This document shows positions 2,066 to 42,369 of a stretch of DNA of 64,000 nucleotides, one piece after another (positions within the stretch are counted from its first letter, which is position 1; each line of letters begins with the position of its first letter). The notes under the pieces were generated by a model that was not told the origin of the DNA, ran no database searches, and worked only from the letters and a program-made list of their open reading frames with translations. Where the stretch lies: contig LFCQ01000006.1 in assembly GCA_001189195.1 (NCBI GenBank), positions 56,841-120,840 of the forward strand, written 5' to 3'. A program made the translations under genes and the position numbers. Source of the stretch: Parcubacteria bacterium C7867-007 (GTDB lineage: Bacteria > Patescibacteriota > Minisyncoccia > Phycocordibacterales > Phycocordibacteraceae).

Positions 2066-2118
2066 CTTTATCTCCACCACACCGTCCTCTGATCACTGTT
2101 CCGCTATTCTGCTTCTAC

Positions 2119-2186
2119 GCCGGTGGCAGGTTTGCAGTGGTCCCCCTCATCAAGGTACCTTTGAGGGTTCAATTCCCTCCACCGGC
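2119..2186 (+). other. 68-nt tRNA-derived palindromic element, copy 1 (GCCGGTGG...GAGGG-TTCAATT-CCCTC-CACCGGC)
   Basis: 8-nt 5' arm complementary to 3' end plus a T-arm-like hairpin; same 68-nt length and same ends as copy at 42282-42349; middle does not fold as a canonical cloverleaf. Confidence 0.5.
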
Positions 2187-2312
2187 ACAAGAATGTTGAC
2201 GAATTTATCATTGAGCAATAATATTATTAGCGATGAGGGGCACCTGCAAATAAGCAAGAGTACTGGGAAAGGCGGCCGAAAGGTCGTTTTTCTTTTTTGC
2301 TATACTCACCCC

Positions 2313-3194
2313 ATGAGTCCTGAGGAACGCCTAGCAGAAATAGAAGAGCTAATGATGTCTCCAACTTTCTGGAGCGATAAGGAGGCTGCACAGAAAGTAG
2401 TACGTGAATACCAATCCCTTAAAGAGGGAGGTTCTGGTGATGGACATGATGGTGGTTCCGCAACCCTGGCTATTCTTGCGGGAGCAGGGGGTGATGATGC
2501 TGAAGACTTCGCACGCATGTTACGTGGGATGTATGAAGGCTATGCAGATGAAAAAGGATGGAGTGTACGTGAGCTCCATGCCAACGAGAATAATCATGGA
2601 GGGTACCGTAACCTACTCCTTGATATAGACGGGAGGGGTGCATACGGACGCTTGAAGCATGAGTCTGGGGTGCACCGTCTTGTACGTATCTCCCCCTTTA
2701 ATGCCAACGATAAACGACAGACATCTTTTGCGCTTGTGGAGGTCTTGCCCGTACTAGCACCAAACGAGCAGACAGCACTCAATCCAGAAGATCTTGAGGT
2801 CACCTTTGCACGTTCTGGTGGAGCGGGAGGACAGAATGTGAACAAACGAGAGACTGCTGTACGTATTACCCACACCCCAACAGGAATTTCTGTACACGTA
2901 TCTAGTGAGCGTAGTCAGCAAGCAAATAGGGACAAGGCTGTTTCACTTATCCAGGCAAAGATATTCGCACGCGAAGAAGAGAAACGTGATGCAGAAGCAA
3001 AGGGACGTTCTATCGCAGCAACCACAGCGAATGAGTGGGGCAGTCAGATACGTTCCTATGTATTGCACCCATACAAAATGGTAAAAGATCACATAACCGG
3101 CCACGAATCACATGATCCAGAGGCTGTTTTGGCGGGAGATCTGGATGCGTTTATTGACGCATCCACAAATTCTGGGCAAGAGGGTGAAGGGTAG
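2313..3194 (+). CDS. prfB: peptide chain release factor 2 (no programmed frameshift; N-terminally short)
   Basis: SPF and GGQ motifs; aligns to RF2 from about residue 28 of B. subtilis RF2; TATACT box 12 nt upstream of ATG. Confidence 0.85.
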
Positions 3195-3211: not shown

Positions 3212-3892
3212 ATGATCTATTTCGACAAGGTGACCAAGCTATACCGAGACGGGACTCCCGCTCTTGAAGACATCACCCTATCGATTGCTCCTAAGGAATT
3301 CGTTTCTATCGTTGGTCACTCAGGCGCAGGCAAGACCACTCTCCTTAAAATGCTTCTTGCAGAAGACGCACCGACAGAAGGCACGGTCTATTTTGAATCA
3401 ACAGATGTGCACTCGCTCCCAAAGAGCCTTCTGCATCACTACCGTCGCAAGATTGGTATGGTCTTCCAAGACTTCCGTCTCATTCCAAACAAGACTGCGT
3501 ACGAGAACATTGCTTTTGCTATGGAAGCAGCAGGTCGTCATGATGATGAGATCGCTTCAGATGTACCTCATATTCTTGATCTGGTAGATCTTGGTAGCAA
3601 GGGAGGACACTTCCCGCACCAGCTTTCAGGAGGAGAGCAACAGCGTGTGGCTATTGGTCGTGCAATCGTAAACCAGCCAGATGTGATTGTGGCTGATGAG
3701 CCAACGGGGAACCTAGATCCGGTAAATACCTACGAGATCGTGGAGATTCTAAAGAAGGTTAACGAACTGGGAACAACGGTGCTTATCACCACACACAATA
3801 AAGGTGTGGTGGACGCGATGGGTAAGCGCGTTATTACTATGGAGCGTGGACGCATAACCCGTGATGATGCGCACGGCCAATATATTCTTTAG
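3212..3892 (+). CDS. ftsE: cell division ATP-binding protein FtsE
   Basis: Walker [13 protein letters not shown] signature LSGGEQQR, Walker B; TATAAT 9 nt upstream of ATG. Confidence 0.85.
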
Positions 3893-4810: not shown

Positions 4811-6454
4811 ATGGCACTCGAAGGACACAAATACATATTCGTTCTCGGTGGCGTCATGTCGGGCGTTGGTAAGGGGGTCGCCACCTCAAGCATGGGACTT
4901 ATCCTGCAGCAGCGTGGATACGGTGTGAACCTCGTAAAGATCGACCCGTATCTAAACGTAGACGCGGGTACCATGAATCCAACAGAGCACGGAGAGGTGT
5001 TTGTACTCAAGAGTGGTCTTGAGACAGATCAGGACATGGGTAACTATGAGCGCTTCCTTAACCGTGATCTAGGGCCGGAAGACTATATGACCTCAGGTAT
5101 GGTGTACCAGACGGTTATCAACCGTGAACGGGCACTGGGATATCACGGAAAGTTTGTTGAAACTATCCCCCATGTTCGAGATGAAATCATTGATCGCCTA
5201 ACCACAGCTGCGGCACATAACGGAAGCCGTATCTCTGTGATCGAGATTGGAGGAACCGTGGGTGATTTTCAGAATGCTCTTTTCATTGATGCTGCTCGTG
5301 TGATGCGTCTCAAGAATCCTAACGATGTTCGCTTTGTCCTTGTTTCGTACCTTCCGGTACCAAACACCATTGGTGAAATGAAGACCAAACCAACACAGAG
5401 TGCAGTGCGTGAACTGAACTCATATGGGGTGCAGCCAGATTTCATCGTTGCTCGATCTAATCATGCGATGGACGAGAAACGCAAAGAGAAACTAGCTATA
5501 TGGTGCAACGTGCAGCCTAACCACATAATCTCTGCGCCGGATGTGGACTCTATCTATGATGTACCACTCAACTTTGAGCAGGATAACCTAGGAGACCTCC
5601 TTCTAGATGCGCTCTCTCTTTCCAAAGAGAAGGTTGCTGATTTCACTGAATGGAATAAGTTTGTCGCAGGAACAAAGGTAAAGGACGCAGAGGTTAAGAT
5701 AGGAATTGTTGGTAAGTATTTTGATACGGGAGACTATATTCTTTCTGATGCATATCTCTCAGTTATTGAGGCACTTAAATTCTCTGGTGCAGAACTAAAA
5801 GTGAAACCAAAGATTGAGTGGATCAATGCAAAGAAGCTTGAAAGCGATGAGGATCTTGAACAGCTCAGCCAATACGATGGCATTATCGTTCCCGGTGGAT
5901 TCGGGGAGACTGGTATTGAAGGGAAGATTCGTGCAGCTCGGTTCTGCCGCGAGAAAAAGATTCCATACTTTGGCCTTTGCTATGGAATGCACATGTTAGT
6001 GATTGAATATGCACGCAATGTTCTGGGTCTTGAGGGTGCACATACGGTAGAGATCAACGCAGAGACAAATTATCCTGTGGTGGATGTGATGCCGGATCAG
6101 AAGGCGCATATCTCTGAAGGGAAGTACGGAGGTACCATGCGTCTTGGCTCATATACAGCAAAGCTTGGTGAAGGAACCATTGCACGTGAGGCATATGGAG
6201 CCGATGCTGTTGAGGAGAGACATCGTCACCGATACGAAATCAATCCTGAATACGTACCACAACTCATTGAGAAAGGTCTGGTGTTCTCTGGTACTAGTCC
6301 CGATGGGGTGCTTATGGAAATTGCTGAACTCCCAAAGAGTGAACACCCGTTCATGCTTGGGTGTCAGTTCCATCCTGAACTCCAGGCTCGTCCTCTTGCA
6401 CCGCACCCACTCTTCACTGCCTTCCTAAGGGCATCCATAGAGAAGAAAGGGTAG
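4811..6454 (+). CDS. pyrG: CTP synthase
   Basis: N-terminal GGVMSGVGKG synthetase motif and C-terminal glutamine amidotransferase domain. Confidence 0.9.
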   Translation: MALEGHKYIFVLGGVMSGVGKGVATSSMGLILQQRGYGVNLVKIDPYLNVDAGTMNPTEHGEVFVLKSGLETDQDMGNYERFLNRDLGPEDYMTSGMVYQTVINRERALGYHGKFVETIPHVRDEIIDRLTTAAAHNGSRISVIEIGGTVGDFQNALFIDAARVMRLKNPNDVRFVLVSYLPVPNTIGEMKTKPTQSAVRELNSYGVQPDFIVARSNHAMDEKRKEKLAIWCNVQPNHIISAPDVDSIYDVPLNFEQDNLGDLLLDALSLSKEKVADFTEWNKFVAGTKVKDAEVKIGIVGKYFDTGDYILSDAYLSVIEALKFSGAELKVKPKIEWINAKKLESDEDLEQLSQYDGIIVPGGFGETGIEGKIRAARFCREKKIPYFGLCYGMHMLVIEYARNVLGLEGAHTVEINAETNYPVVDVMPDQKAHISEGKYGGTMRLGSYTAKLGEGTIAREAYGADAVEERHRHRYEINPEYVPQLIEKGLVFSGTSPDGVLMEIAELPKSEHPFMLGCQFHPELQARPLAPHPLFTAFLRASIEKKG

Positions 6455-20148: not shown

Positions 20149-20925
20149 CTAATACAAAACAAGGAAGAAAAATACTCCCGCAAGCACGATACGATACACA
20201 CCAAACGGTATAAAGGTATATCGTTTAATAAAGCTGAGGAAGAGACGGAGTACTAACAGTGCGGTGATAAAGGCGGTGACCATTCCGATTGCAAGAACAC
20301 CAATGTCTGCATCCACAAATGATTCGTAATTCTTAAGCAGATCGTAACTAGTTGCAGCACCCATCGTTGGTACCGCAAGAAGGAAAGAGAACTCAACGAT
20401 CGCGGTACGACGAATACCCAGAAGCAAGCCACCCATAATAGTTGCTGCAGAACGTGATACCCCGGGGATCACTGCAATGGACTGGAAGAGTCCAACCAGG
20501 AATGCTTTCCTATACGGAATAGTTGCAAAGGAATCTGTTTCAGTTGGTTGCACAGGTTCCTTGTGCAAGAGTTCAAATATAATGAGCAGAATACCTCCAA
20601 CAAACAATGCGATAACCACGGTGAGTTCGCTCTTGAGGAGCACATCTTTAATGAGCGGGTAGAGTGTGAACCCAATAACTGCAGTGGGGAGGAAGGCAAC
20701 GAAGAGTCGTTTCAAGACCTCAATGTTTAGGAAGGATTTCCAATACGTAATAAGCACTGCAGCAATAGCGCCAAACTGAATGGCAATAATAAAACTAGTG
20801 AGGAAGGCAGAGTCTGGAATCGCTAGGAGATCACTGGCTAGAATAAGGTGCCCTGTTGAAGAAATGGGGAGGAACTCAGCAGCTCCCTCCAAAAGACCAA
20901 GGATTATAGCGTCTAAGGCAGTCAT
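20149..20925 (-). CDS. uppP: undecaprenyl-diphosphate phosphatase
   Basis: GLLEGAAEFLPISSTGHL motif; 258 aa polytopic. Confidence 0.85.
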   Translation of the reverse strand: MTALDAIILGLLEGAAEFLPISSTGHLILASDLLAIPDSAFLTSFIIAIQFGAIAAVLITYWKSFLNIEVLKRLFVAFLPTAVIGFTLYPLIKDVLLKSELTVVIALFVGGILLIIFELLHKEPVQPTETDSFATIPYRKAFLVGLFQSIAVIPGVSRSAATIMGGLLLGIRRTAIVEFSFLLAVPTMGAATSYDLLKNYESFVDADIGVLAIGMVTAFITALLVLRLFLSFIKRYTFIPFGVYRIVLAGVFFFLVLY

Positions 20926-21368: not shown

Positions 21369-21612
21369 TTCATACTTTGTATACATACTGGAGTGCGCAG
21401 ATGGAACTCTCTATACCGGGAGTACGAATGATATAGAGCGAAGAATGAAAGCACACAATGGTGATGGACCAGGTGGCGCACGGTATACCCGTGGGAGACG
21501 ACCGGTGGTGCTTAGGTATCAAGAGGTATGTGACGGACGCGGCGTTGCACTTACTCGTGAGCATGAGCTGAAGCAATTGAGCCGTATACAGAAGCTTGCC
21601 TTGTGTAAATAA
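21349..21612 (+). CDS. GIY-YIG nuclease family protein (UPF0213-like)
   Basis: YFVYILECADGTLYTGSTNDIERRMKAHN GIY-YIG motif; overlaps cupin gene end. Confidence 0.7.
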   Translation: MESPASNSYFVYILECADGTLYTGSTNDIERRMKAHNGDGPGGARYTRGRRPVVLRYQEVCDGRGVALTREHELKQLSRIQKLALCK

Positions 21613-21637
21613 CTTCAGCATTTCTTTATCTTCTCCT

Positions 21638-21670
21638 TACGCTCCTCATATCACCCTGTGCGTATAGTAC
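21638..21670 (+). promoter_or_regulatory. conserved upstream motif TTACGCtCCtCATATCAC-N8-TATAGTA
   Basis: near-identical motif at 42242-42277; weaker copy at 2088-2113. Confidence 0.45.
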
Positions 21671-21697: not shown

Positions 21698-22432
21698 ATG
21701 GAACAAACCTACGTAATGACCAATCATGATCTACTCCTTGATGGTAGCGGGAAGCGCTATGAGCTTCGTGTACGTGACTTGCCGCAAGAAGAGAAACCAC
21801 GTGAGCGCCTTAGTGCGGAAGGTCCTGCTGCACTTTCCGTGCAAGAACTTCTTGCGATAGTGCTCACCACAGGAACGAAGAAAGAAGAAGTTCTTTCTAT
21901 GGCAACACGCATTGTTAATGAGTATGGAGATCGTAATGCTCTTATGGCAAGCGATGCCAAAGTACTTGCTGCGGATCTCGACATACCGCTAGTGAAAGCG
22001 ATGCAGATTGTTGCGGTAGGGGAACTCGGGCGCCGCTTCTTCCGAAAGCAGAAGAATGGAGCTGCAATAATCCGTACCGCTCGTGATGTATATGACTACA
22101 CCGTGGATATGCGTACCCTGCCAAAGGAACATCTGCGCGGCCTATACTTGGATGCACACTATCAGGTGATTCATGACGAGACACTATCTATTGGAACAAT
22201 CGATGCAAACCTGATTCACCCACGTGAAGTGTTTCGCCCAGCACTCGCACATGCGGCAGCTGCAGTAGTACTCGTTCACAATCATCCCTCAGGTGTTGTT
22301 ACGCCAAGCGAAGCAGATTGTATGGTCACTCAACAAATTGCTGCAGCAGGAAGAATTCTTGGAATTGAACTTGTGGACCACGTTGTTATTACGGAGGATA
22401 CCTTTACCAGCATATCTACTGAATTCTCATGA
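21698..22432 (+). CDS. radC: RadC-like JAB-domain protein (UPF0758)
   Basis: HNHPSGVVTPSEAD JAMM motif; TATATACT 7 nt upstream of ATG. Confidence 0.8.
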   Translation: MEQTYVMTNHDLLLDGSGKRYELRVRDLPQEEKPRERLSAEGPAALSVQELLAIVLTTGTKKEEVLSMATRIVNEYGDRNALMASDAKVLAADLDIPLVKAMQIVAVGELGRRFFRKQKNGAAIIRTARDVYDYTVDMRTLPKEHLRGLYLDAHYQVIHDETLSIGTIDANLIHPREVFRPALAHAAAAVVLVHNHPSGVVTPSEADCMVTQQIAAAGRILGIELVDHVVITEDTFTSISTEFS

Positions 22433-41392: not shown

Positions 41393-42109
41393 ATGGAAAA
41401 CACAAAAAGCGCATTTATGGACCGATACCTTACTCCGTTAGCAGTATTGCTTGCGGCAGTAATTATCGCTCTTGCAATGATTTATGGTCAGGGTCTTGGT
41501 TCAGGCAACAAAGGGGCTGATGGTAAGGCTGCAGTAGCAGTAGACATCAAAGATGTTAAGACGGACAACAGTCCGTATATTGGAGACAAGAATGCACCTA
41601 CCACCGTTGCAGTCTTCTATGATTACCAGTGCCCATTCTGCAAGCAGTTTGAGGAGGCAGTAACTCCTAAACTCATCGATGCGTATGTGAAGGAAGGAAA
41701 GACAAAGATTGTCTTCAAGGACTTCCAGTTCCTCGGTGAGGACTCAACCACTGCAGCACTATTCGGTCGTGCCCTTTGGGAGGCACATCCTGATAAGTTC
41801 CATGACTGGTTCGTTGCAATGGCTGGTGCTCAAGATGATGAAGGTGATCAGGGCTTCGGAGATCTTGCATCTATCCAGAAACTATCGGCAGGTATTCCTG
41901 GGATCGATGTTGCAAAGGTAACCAAGCTCATGACTGATAAGAAGGCTGACTACATGAAGGCAATTGAAGCTGATCGTGCAGAAGGTGCCGCTCTCGGTAT
42001 CAACGGTACACCAAGCGTTATTGCAGGTACTAAGCTCTTCTCAGGCATGTCTCCTGATGCATTCTTCACTGGAATCTCGGCACAGCTTGATGCACAGCTG
42101 AAGAAGTAA
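41393..42109 (+). CDS. DsbA-like thiol:disulfide oxidoreductase, membrane-anchored
   Basis: thioredoxin CPFC active site in FYDYQCPFCKQF; N-terminal TM. Confidence 0.75.
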   Translation: MENTKSAFMDRYLTPLAVLLAAVIIALAMIYGQGLGSGNKGADGKAAVAVDIKDVKTDNSPYIGDKNAPTTVAVFYDYQCPFCKQFEEAVTPKLIDAYVKEGKTKIVFKDFQFLGEDSTTAALFGRALWEAHPDKFHDWFVAMAGAQDDEGDQGFGDLASIQKLSAGIPGIDVAKVTKLMTDKKADYMKAIEADRAEGAALGINGTPSVIAGTKLFSGMSPDAFFTGISAQLDAQLKK

Positions 42110-42183
42110 TTGACATGTCATAGCAATTTGCTACGATTGTCTATGACAGTTACCCTCTGGTGAAAACCAAACGAGAGTGGAAG

Positions 42184-42220
42184 AAAAACACCGACCCATA
42201 AAGTCGGTGTTTTTCTTTTT
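42184..42220 (+). terminator. intrinsic terminator AAAAACACCGACCCATAAAGTCGGTGTTTTTCTTTTT
   Basis: perfect hairpin and T tract. Confidence 0.75.
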
Positions 42221-42241
42221 CAGTTGTATTTGATTTTCTTC

Positions 42242-42277
42242 TTACGCCCTCCATATCACTATTTTTCTATAGTAATC
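42242..42277 (+). promoter_or_regulatory. conserved upstream motif TTACGCCCTCCATATCAC-N8-TATAGTAAT
   Basis: near-identical to 21638-21670. Confidence 0.45.
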
Positions 42278-42281
42278 CTGC

Positions 42282-42349
42282 GCCGGTGGTTTCGGTGACG
42301 AGAGGGTAATTGTCACTCCACTCTTGAGGGTTCAACTCCCTCCACCGGC
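42282..42349 (+). other. 68-nt tRNA-derived palindromic element, copy 2 (GCCGGTGG...GAGGG-TTCAACT-CCCTC-CACCGGC)
   Basis: same ends and length as 2119-2186; internal GTGAC/GTCAC hairpin; sits immediately upstream of a TATATACT box and ATG at 42370. Confidence 0.5.
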
Positions 42350-42369
42350 TAAGGATATATACTGAATAC

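Follow-up and report, generated by a model that had tools for sequence, protein, structure and literature searches.

Each of two loci in a 64,000-nucleotide (nt) stretch of the metagenome-assembled genome of Parcubacteria bacterium C7867-007 (the window, throughout this text) is probably a two-gene RNA module, consisting of a tRNA mimic and a dedicated antisense RNA that masks it. As judged by comparative sequence analysis, both loci contain two adjacent genes of RNA type, one of which folds as a miniature tRNA and the other of which is complementary to it in a specific and compensated manner. From this arrangement we infer that both RNAs are made and pair with each other in vivo. The mimic, with its Thr-type acceptor stem and T-arm, most likely descended from tRNA-Thr(UGU), and our leading guess for its function is a tRNA decoy that is either toxin-antitoxin-like or threshold-controlled. 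A broader proposal is advanced more tentatively, namely that these loci represent a new class of RNA-only modules in the candidate phyla radiation, in which a minihelix would engage translation or tRNA processing as an aminoacyl carrier or a decoy, and a hypervariable arm would address an 'anti-tRNA' small RNA (sRNA) that switches the mimic off by toehold strand exchange; orthogonal pairs would coexist, turn over in a selfish-like manner and include cases of dual coding inside an aminoacyl-tRNA synthetase gene.

The two elements, W1 (copy 1; window 2119-2186) and W2 (copy 2; 42282-42349), were noticed in an earlier reading of the window (the original prediction) for their identical ends and differing interiors. 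Reading the sequence back bears this out, as both are 68 nt long and have a common 5′ end (GCCGGTGG), a common 3′ end (GAGGG-TTCAAYT-CCCTC-CACCGGC) and 37-nt interiors that differ. In the window, which has a G+C content of 48%, the 24-nt 3′ motif occurs exactly twice, against an expectation of 0.00. A covariance model built from nine family members recovers only W1 and W2 there, with scores of 74.7 and 70.4 bits, and the next matches are two true tRNA-Thr genes (29.7 and 27.5 bits), a ranking that is consistent with descent of the elements from tRNA-Thr. Across the whole window, ARAGORN reports four ordinary tRNAs (Thr-GGU at 1200, Thr-CGU at 1956, Gln and Ser), no tRNA at W1 or W2, and no transfer-messenger RNA (tmRNA). 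At the gathering score, Rfam 15 also gives four tRNAs only, with no family at the elements or at their partners, which agrees with the original view that these are not ordinary tRNAs. Relaxing the threshold to E ≤ 10 yields sub-threshold matches at the elements to tRNA (20.7 bits; cut-off 29), mascRNA (23.6/23.7 bits; cut-off 42.5) and tRNA-Sec (22.7 bits; cut-off 47), together with plastid tRNA-like matches on the opposite strand.

A search for further copies beyond the window proved productive, and at least 11 modules are now recognized in Parcubacteria/Patescibacteria DNA. In addition to W1 and W2, these comprise two modules on a contig of a Patescibacteria genome (L004_1 and L004_2), modules on four metagenome contigs (L122, L123 with two in tandem, and L124/L125), and orthologues of the two window modules. 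A scan of a genome collection with the 3′ motif returned, among the matches listed, mostly canonical tRNAs, chiefly haloarchaeal tRNA-Thr(CGU), and one family member, L004. The same acceptor and T-arm sequence is thus found in ordinary tRNA-Thr(CGU/UGU) of haloarchaea and of some bacteria, which carry U8 and a full D-arm and are 71-74 nt long; true relatives are told apart by G8 and by a length of 67-69 nt, which holds across the family.

The fold of the mimic is defined by four helices. In W1 (2119-2187; all window features given here are on the forward strand), the acceptor stem is formed by 2119-2125 and 2180-2186 and is followed by the discriminator A2187, the mini D-hairpin spans 2126-2135 (GCA-GGUU-UGC), the long arm pairs 2136-2145 with 2153-2162 around the loop CUCAUCA (2146-2152, with a CAU triplet), and the T-arm occupies 2163-2179. 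In W2 (42282-42350), the corresponding features are the acceptor stem 42282-42288/42343-42349, the mini D-hairpin 42289-42299 (GUU-UCGGU-GAC), the long arm 42300-42306/42318-42325 with a loop at about 42307-42317 that contains AUUGUCA (UGU triplet), the T-arm 42326-42342 and the discriminator U42350. Over nine sequences, 99.1% of the cells of the acceptor stem and T-arm are paired, and three pairs have changed on both sides (G1-C72 to A-U, U6-A67 to C-G, and one T-stem G-C to A-U). For the full cloverleaf, an alignment of L004_1, L004_2, L122 and L125 is 95.8% paired with seven double-changed pairs, including two in the mini D-stem and four in the long arm, versus 36-53% paired in slid-register controls. 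Comparison of W1 with its orthologues L129/L130 gives 86.7% pairing and again seven pairs with double changes; over all structure tests, slid-register controls are 29-67% paired. Covariation thus supports all four helices of a tRNA-like sRNA. Of the several options left by the original prediction, it is the tRNA-like small RNA that gains from these data, from the promoter cassette upstream of it, and from its conservation at orthologous positions. The statement that the interior does not give canonical D and anticodon arms holds, although the interior does fold, into a mini D-hairpin and a long anticodon-like arm, and the description of the elements as palindromic applies to the acceptor stem and not to the remainder.

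Within this fold, the hairpin directly 3′ of the acceptor stem has 2-5 base pairs (bp; 3 in W1 and W2) and a loop of 3-5 nt, every one of which contains GG. By analogy with tRNA, this GG would be the counterpart of the G18-G19 pair of residues that dock on the T-loop. The anticodon-like arm consists of 8-10 layers and runs directly into the T-stem, with no variable loop in most family members. Its length equals that of the normal stack of D-stem and anticodon stem, which makes an L-shape of normal size plausible. The loop pattern U33-NNN-Y37-A38 is kept in loops of 7-11 nt. Seven modules, W2 among them, have a UUGUCA loop (UGU, a Thr anticodon), and all seven carry the discriminator U that is found in the tRNA-Thr genes of this genome; W1 and L129 have CUCAUCA (CAU), both with discriminator A, and L125 has UUAGUA. 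G8 is invariant, the third acceptor pair is C3-G70 in every member, and the T-loop reads UUCAAYU or UUCGAWU in nine of 11 members and UCCRAUY in the other two.

Every module contains a second small gene that adjoins the element on the same strand, downstream of it in W1, L129, L004, L122, L123 and L125 and upstream in W2 and L133. The predicted transcript is 70-90 nt long, starts from a near-consensus sigma-70 promoter of the type TTGACA-17-TAnnnT and ends at an intrinsic terminator. A promoter scan gives matches at 9-11 of 12 consensus positions in W1, W2, L129, L133, L122 and L004 (10-11 of 12 in modules other than W1 and W2), and a terminator scan places a predicted terminator hairpin at the end of each partner. 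Outside the promoter, the terminator and the blocks complementary to the element, the partners have almost no common sequence. For W1, the promoter lies at 2196-2224 (TTGACG-17-TAATAT) and the sRNA at 2231-2300, with a terminator hairpin at 2265-2294 and a T-run to 2298; the −10 box (2301-2306) and ATG (2313) of the leaderless prfB gene follow. The original prediction placed copy 1 directly ahead of this −10 box; in fact, the small transcription unit intervenes. For W2, the promoter (42110-42137; TTGACA-16-TACGAT, TG-extended) comes directly after the stop codon of a dsbA-like gene (42107-42109), and the sRNA (42143-42220; probable start A42143, in an AUG) contains a small hairpin at 42159-42171 and a terminator at 42189-42209 (CACCGAC-CCAUAAA-GUCGGUG, then a T-run). 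On the far side of this element lies a leaderless gene of 166 amino acids (aa; −10 box 42358-42363, ATG 42370). A second partner-like sRNA gene is found 5′ of the L122 element (L122 2650-2760), with a TTGACA-17-TATACC promoter and a terminator at 2731-2751; its 5′ block fits the element imperfectly, and it may be an orphaned or decaying duplicate.

The partner is complementary to its element in two blocks, H1 and H2, both present in every module. H1 comprises 10-22 bp between the 5′ end of the partner, beginning about 5-8 nt past the −10 box and hence with approximately the first transcribed bases as predicted, and the loop and 5′ arm strand of the element. H2 follows 1-20 nt beyond H1 on the partner. 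In W1, L129, W2, L133 and L123B, H2 pairs with the 3′ arm strand and ends at the first G of the T-stem, and in L004_1, L004_2, L122 and L125 it pairs with the 5′ strand of the T-stem and the first bases of the T-loop; in all nine modules it is anchored at that first T-stem G. The W1 partner uses GAUGAGGGG (2232-2240) and CUGCAAAU (2244-2251) for H1, against element nt 25-33 and 12-19, and 2255-2264 for H2, against element nt 36-45. In the W2 partner, UGACAGUUACCCUCU (42144-42158) pairs with element nt 20-34 and CGAGAGUGGA (42172-42181) with element nt 36-45.

These complementarities have been maintained by compensatory change. With the modules aligned on A38, H1 columns 0 to -9 are paired in 9-10 of ten modules, and each column shows between two and four kinds of Watson-Crick pair. 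Between W2 and its orthologue L133, five double substitutions in H1 and four in H2 preserve pairing, as read from the sequences and in agreement with the pairing tables. Cofolding energies, taken net as the energy of the dimer minus those of the two monomers, average -11.1 kcal/mol for cognate pairs (nine of ten at or below -7.2 kcal/mol) and -1.3 kcal/mol for non-cognate pairs, most of which give 0.0; the ΔΔG is -11.1 kcal/mol for the W1 pair and -7.2 kcal/mol for the W2 pair. Only orthologues cross-react strongly, and no cross-reaction is seen among the pairs of a single genome. A matrix of two-helix scores likewise places the cognate partner at the top of every row. RNAduplex energies alone discriminate poorly because the pairing is split over two helices, and unlimited G·U in run-length complementarity scans inflated the background; the two-helix score and the cofold net energies were the measures that worked.

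The strand on which pairing takes place can also be addressed. A strict count of wobbles in H1 finds three U·G versus no A·C, and three G·U pairs occur in acceptor stems (L004_1, L133 and L123A). These wobbles fit the forward strand only and favor pairing at the RNA level on that strand, although the numbers are small and suggestive rather than decisive. Together with the covariation of the acceptor 5′ strand and the arm and with the co-evolving partner, they speak against the att-like remnant or DNA-level regulatory element that the original prediction had also allowed. Elsewhere in the window, 20464-20477, antisense to bacA, has 14 bp of complementarity (one G·U) to W1 nt 14-27; about 0.1 such matches are expected by chance in the window by our own estimate, and this one is probably a coincidence.

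H1 and H2 occur in the same 5′-to-3′ order on both RNAs in all eight modules in which both were scored. The sequence that the partner complements is thus a circularly permuted arm, not the arm read from one end to the other. One reading of this arrangement is that the partner has a 5′ tail directed against the loop and, after it, a hairpin of its own, built from the stem strands of the mimic arm and closed at the opposite end. A partner hairpin that mirrors the arm has the layout needed for toehold binding and four-way strand exchange. We propose that the single-stranded 5′ end of the partner would act as a toehold on the exposed loop, and that the partner would then unzip the arm by strand exchange with its own mirror-image hairpin. 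The outcome would be an anticodon-like loop that is masked and, in some modules, a T-arm that is melted. On this reading, H2 of the arm type arises automatically from the partner hairpin, whereas H2 of the T-stem type does not, which points to a T-arm that is actively melted. The minihelix and elbow, which are constant, may engage RNase P, the CCA-adding enzyme, possibly threonyl- or methionyl-tRNA synthetase (ThrRS or MetRS), and EF-Tu or the ribosome. The minihelix would thus be the working end of the mimic, and the variable arm would serve only as the address for its private antagonist.

The two genes of a module appear to be under different control. A cassette of about 60 nt lies 5′ of W1, W2, L129, L133, L123A and L123B, with the aligned consensus TCAG..TTTCTTTATCTTC.TCTTACG.TCCTC.TATCAC-N8-TATAGT-N8-G1. 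In W1 it spans 2057-2110 (TCAG-TTTTTCTTTATCT...CCGTCCTCTGATCAC-N8-TATTCT), with the −10 box at 2105-2110, 8 nt before G1, and in W2 it spans 42220-42273 (TCAG...TTTTCTTCTTACGCCCTCCATATCAC-N8-TATAGT), with the −10 box at 42268-42273. A third copy (21612-21669) lies ahead of the radC ATG at 21698, where there is no tRNA-like gene and no module. The recurrence of an upstream motif before radC and, more weakly, before copy 1 had been correctly observed. The motif belongs to this conserved cassette, a predicted promoter that radC shares, and had earlier been treated as possibly part of the element. The radC gene probably belongs to the same regulon as the mimics, the shared cassette suggesting co-regulation, and the partner promoter appears to be of constitutive type. 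With a special promoter for the mimic and a constitutive-looking one for the antagonist, the antagonist would set a threshold, as IstR-1 does for tisB. At radC, the −35 position of the cassette is unlike a sigma-70 box.

Comparison of related loci indicates that modules are gained and lost between close relatives and can sit in-frame in an essential gene. At the prfB locus, W1 has orthologues in L129/L130, and L126, L128, L131 and L132, whose release factor 2 (RF2) proteins are 84-88% identical, are free of a module. The upstream edge of the W1 module is the intrinsic terminator of tRNA-Thr(CGU) (2041-2069; CTGACTC-TAATTA-GAGTCAG, then a T-run), which has an equivalent in L129, and W1 itself begins 88 nt past the end of that tRNA. 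In L126 and L128, tRNA-Thr(CGU) is followed by the terminator that in W1 and L129 closes the partner sRNA, and leaderless prfB starts immediately beyond it. At the locus between dsbA and the 166-aa gene, L133 contains a W2 orthologue and L134-L137 are empty. Three further sites lie antisense inside the open reading frame (ORF) of leucyl-tRNA synthetase (LeuRS) in L122 and L004, with the frame still open. The L122 LeuRS is complete (945 aa), its residues 377-504 being without counterpart in Thermus thermophilus LeuRS, and in L004 two separate LeuRS sites each hold a module, both read in the same antisense frame. The embedded promoters and terminators are still near-consensus. Where the module is intergenic, stop codons interrupt most of the six frames across it, which means that an open frame is no inherent property of the element and, within LeuRS, is preserved by selection on that protein. 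No other proteins were matched by a profile of the peptides from the LeuRS inserts. As modules occur in tandem, in either gene order and antisense in the LeuRS ORF, an RNase P-processed leader of a leaderless gene, which the original prediction had offered, fails as a general explanation.

Several other features of these loci were observed. The L004 contig (JAHJJO010000063.1) is a perfect reverse-complement palindrome centred at 3467, which indicates an assembly artefact; only one half is trustworthy, and both modules lie within one half. Besides its two RNA-module inserts, the L004 LeuRS has a NUDIX domain inserted after the editing domain (residues 443-560). In L126 (2400-2830), L128 and L132, an ORF of about 140 aa lies between a DUF2238 gene and tRNA-Thr(CGU) and is absent from the window and L129; its HNH-nuclease-like label was judged by eye (HIDGNWRNN...CPNCD), and it is another sign that the tRNA-Thr neighborhood is an insertion hotspot. 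A few kb from the empty W2-type site of L137 lies a very large polymorphic-toxin gene (4853-5525; RHS, SpvB and a Colicin_E5 tRNase). The RF2 gene of the window (2313-3194) encodes 293 aa, in keeping with more than 100 Parcubacteria RF2 homologues of about 290 aa. The ORF finder gives 2193-3194, an annotation trap in which an in-frame ATG at 2193 extends the prfB ORF over the W1 partner gene. Relative to E. coli RF2, the window protein is without about the first 30 residues, most of the next helical domain and the CUU-UGA frameshift site.

Some observations weigh against a mimic and a masking antisense RNA. Several of the sampled modules are related by descent, and the promoters, starts and ends of both RNAs are predictions. 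CCA is unencoded in most copies. The same order of H1 and H2 on both RNAs makes a single continuous duplex impossible, and formation of both helices together would be sterically awkward where the linker is 0-1 nt. Moreover, H2 of the arm type may merely follow from H1, the mimic arm and the partner hairpin. L123A binds its partner weakly in cofolding (-1.4 kcal/mol), and with its altered T-loop it may be decaying. Finally, we only infer that the antagonist sets a threshold and that the mimic engages the tRNA machinery.

It is possible, though on balance doubtful, that a toxin-antitoxin or addiction module of two RNAs (resembling type VIII, or type I but with no peptide) is layered on this arrangement. 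A stable free mimic would be harmful, for instance because it titrates ThrRS, RNase P, EF-Tu or the A site of the ribosome, and would be neutralized by a labile, strongly transcribed partner. A constant scaffold with a hypervariable, co-evolving address and orthogonality within a genome is typical of immunity-type specificity, and the strong consensus promoter of the antagonist, set beside the special promoter of the mimic, would fit such a system. Sporadic presence among close relatives, persistence in an essential gene, tandem modules and the apparently orphaned or decaying partner copy upstream in L122 point in the same direction. Neither gene encodes a peptide toxin, however, and orthologous modules have been kept over about 15-30% protein divergence, which would suit a host function equally well; partner instability and mimic toxicity would both have to be assumed.

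The polarity of the module could also be the reverse, in which case the partner would be a functional sRNA or a leaderless AUG mini-mRNA and the mimic a stable sponge or antisense regulator. What speaks for this unlikely arrangement is that the W2, L133, L123B and L125 partners start with AUG 5 nt past the −10 box, like bona fide leaderless genes, and that the mimic triplet faces a codon of the partner. Several partners share such a start about 5 nt past the −10 box, as leaderless genes do here (window 42143-42163 and 2233-2253; L133 2273-2296), and could encode unconserved mini-peptides (MTVTLW in W2, MTRFCLL in L133, MRGTCK in W1, 13 aa in L129 and MY in L125); the codon that faces the mimic triplet is ACA or ACG for UGU, and AUG itself for CAU. 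Yet at 2-13 codons these mini-ORFs are unconserved, the LeuRS-embedded partners have no 5′ start codon, and the partners are nearly without common sequence, whereas the mimic scaffold is nearly invariant.

Working minimalist tRNAs with a reduced D-arm, decoding ACA (UGU) or AUG/AUA (CAU), are a distinctly unlikely explanation. They would account for an arm as long as the stack of D-stem and anticodon stem, for the retained elbow GG, T-loop, U33 and A38, and for the discriminators, as UGU copies have U73 like the tRNA-Thr of this genome and CAU copies have A73 like tRNA-Met/Ile. Of the ten family members given to ARAGORN, three are called in mitochondrial mode, W1 as Met(CAT), but the anticodons are inconsistent and none of the ten is called in the default bacterial mode; the Rfam tRNA score of 20.7 bits is likewise below the cut-off of 29. 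Position 37 is C or U in ten of ten members, where a purine (t6A) would be expected, which argues against normal decoding, as do loops of up to 11 nt. Furthermore, several copies bearing an identical triplet can occur in a single gene, and decoding leaves a dedicated antisense RNA over 15-22 nt unexplained.

We consider it very unlikely that the element is a selfish DNA repeat of the type of a miniature inverted-repeat transposable element (MITE) or a Rickettsia palindromic element (RPE), the complementarity representing a transposition hairpin or template switching and the RNA features being incidental. In-frame positions at three sites inside LeuRS, filled and empty sites in close relatives, and an 11-bp inverted repeat that flanks the L122 element would all be expected of such a repeat. 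Against this, copies in the same genome are alike only in the tRNA-like scaffold, the complementary blocks are non-nested, unlike any simple hairpin, promoters and terminators are conserved even under coding constraint, and the wobble pairs are strand-specific. No terminal inverted repeat or target-site duplication was noticed at filled and empty boundaries, which were read by eye with no repeat search run, and no copies were found in viral, phage or plasmid collections: pattern scans of IMG/VR gave 0 matches, and blastn against phage and plasmid collections gave none. Decay of tRNA-Thr genes, or att-site remnants of elements integrated at tRNA genes, is hardly credible. W1 does lie close to tRNA-Thr(CGU), and an identical acceptor and T-arm sequence is carried by true tRNA-Thr genes of other phyla. 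The two strands of the acceptor stem have nonetheless been retained and covary, as does the folded interior, a covariation that contradicts such decay; orthologous positions are conserved, and the element has its own promoter cassette and a co-evolving partner.

A mimic held in check by its own antisense RNA would be of interest for several reasons. Almost nothing is known of regulatory RNAs in Patescibacteria, which hold a large share of bacterial diversity in minimal genomes, and antisense control of a tRNA mimic, if true, would be a new way to interfere with, or borrow from, the tRNA machinery. Orthogonal, addressable RNA switches on a constant scaffold would have a natural example in the module. 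In the LeuRS cases, two complete RNA genes and a protein segment would occupy opposite strands of the same DNA within an essential gene. Gene finders overlook these elements.

Comparison with known classes places the module outside canonical tRNA, tmRNA, type I toxin-antitoxin systems, MITE or RPE repeats and T-box leaders. Relative to canonical tRNA (Rfam RF00005), the elements have the 7-bp acceptor stem and the 5-bp T-stem with a UUCRANY loop, but they fall short of the finder and gathering scores and of the set of U8, a 3-4-bp D-stem with a 7-11-nt loop, a 5-bp anticodon stem, a 7-nt loop, a purine at 37 and a variable loop of at least 4 nt. One- and two-piece tmRNA are ruled out by C3-G70 in place of G3·U70, by the lack of a tag-like frame and by the silence of ARAGORN. 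A type I toxin-antitoxin system is set aside because neither transcript has a conserved ORF and intergenic frames mostly contain stops; for a type VIII assignment, the sequences support the pairing and its specificity, and toxicity would be an assumption. A MITE or RPE is rejected given two copies in the window with only the scaffold in common, non-nested blocks and no terminal repeats or duplications seen by eye without a dedicated repeat search, even though in-frame location in protein genes does apply (LeuRS is open in L122 and, in L004, across two modules). A T-box is rejected on the grounds that there is no Rfam T-box match at the gathering score or at E ≤ 10 in either region and that the partner is a stand-alone terminated sRNA. 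A phage- or plasmid-borne element is not represented in the IMG/VR, phage and plasmid collections. IS110-style bridge RNAs, integron attC sites, retrons and H/ACA-like guides were rejected on reading the sequences by eye, as no associated protein genes or defining motifs were seen and the block order is wrong.

The closest resemblance in genetic organization is to tisB/IstR-1, CreT/CreA and SdsR/RyeA. In these systems, too, small genes adjoin, one RNA is neutralized by the other via pairing that sets out from an unpaired 5′ end or a loop, the antagonist is driven by a strong promoter of constitutive appearance, and the unit is dispensable, patchy in distribution and sometimes duplicated. Unlike tisB/IstR-1 and type VIII systems, the module has no toxin ORF, its target is tRNA-shaped and bears a hypervariable address on an invariant scaffold, complementarity falls into two non-nested blocks, and no Cas or other protein partner is evident. 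In shape, the mimic is reminiscent of the tRNA-like domain of tmRNA, mascRNA, YrlA, viral tRNA-like structures and D-arm-less mitochondrial tRNAs, with which it has in common a minihelix of acceptor stem and T-arm, a T-loop of canonical type, a reduced D region whose GG could form an elbow, and the likelihood of being a substrate of RNase P and the CCA-adding enzyme. However, mascRNA is eukaryotic and YrlA has a Ro-binding stem that is not present in the mimic, and for none of these RNAs do we know of a dedicated antisense gene that co-evolves with it.

In mode of recognition, the module recalls the plasmid antisense systems CopA/CopT and ColE1 RNA I/RNA II, in which recognition likewise proceeds from an exposed loop through four-way-junction strand exchange of hairpins with the same stem strands, and a few loop and stem positions set the specificity and create orthogonal 'incompatibility' groups. 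Those RNAs are fully complementary cis-antisense products of one locus that control replication, whereas the two genes of the module are separate, lie on the same strand of the chromosome with no replicon, and are complementary only in part and in permuted order. The T-box offers a parallel in the presentation of a codon plus a purine to anticodon and U33, in a second 3′ contact in the same order on both RNAs, and in an intrinsic terminator; in contrast to the T-box, the first contact is 10-22 bp rather than 3-4 bp, there is no Stem I platform, T-box sequence or antiterminator, and the ligand is a private mimic. RPEs are similar in being short elements of non-coding type that lie in-frame in conserved protein genes and are translated as an extra surface segment. 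They are, however, similar palindromic DNA repeats without promoters, terminators or trans-pairing partners of their own, whereas the copies described here share the scaffold alone and each insert carries two complete RNA genes on the antisense strand. A search of the published full-text literature, within its incomplete coverage, found no description of such a module. Its single ingredients, namely tRNA mimicry, antisense control and in-frame selfish inserts, all have known parallels, but to our knowledge no reported system joins a tRNA mimic with an antisense gene that is dedicated to it and co-evolves with it.

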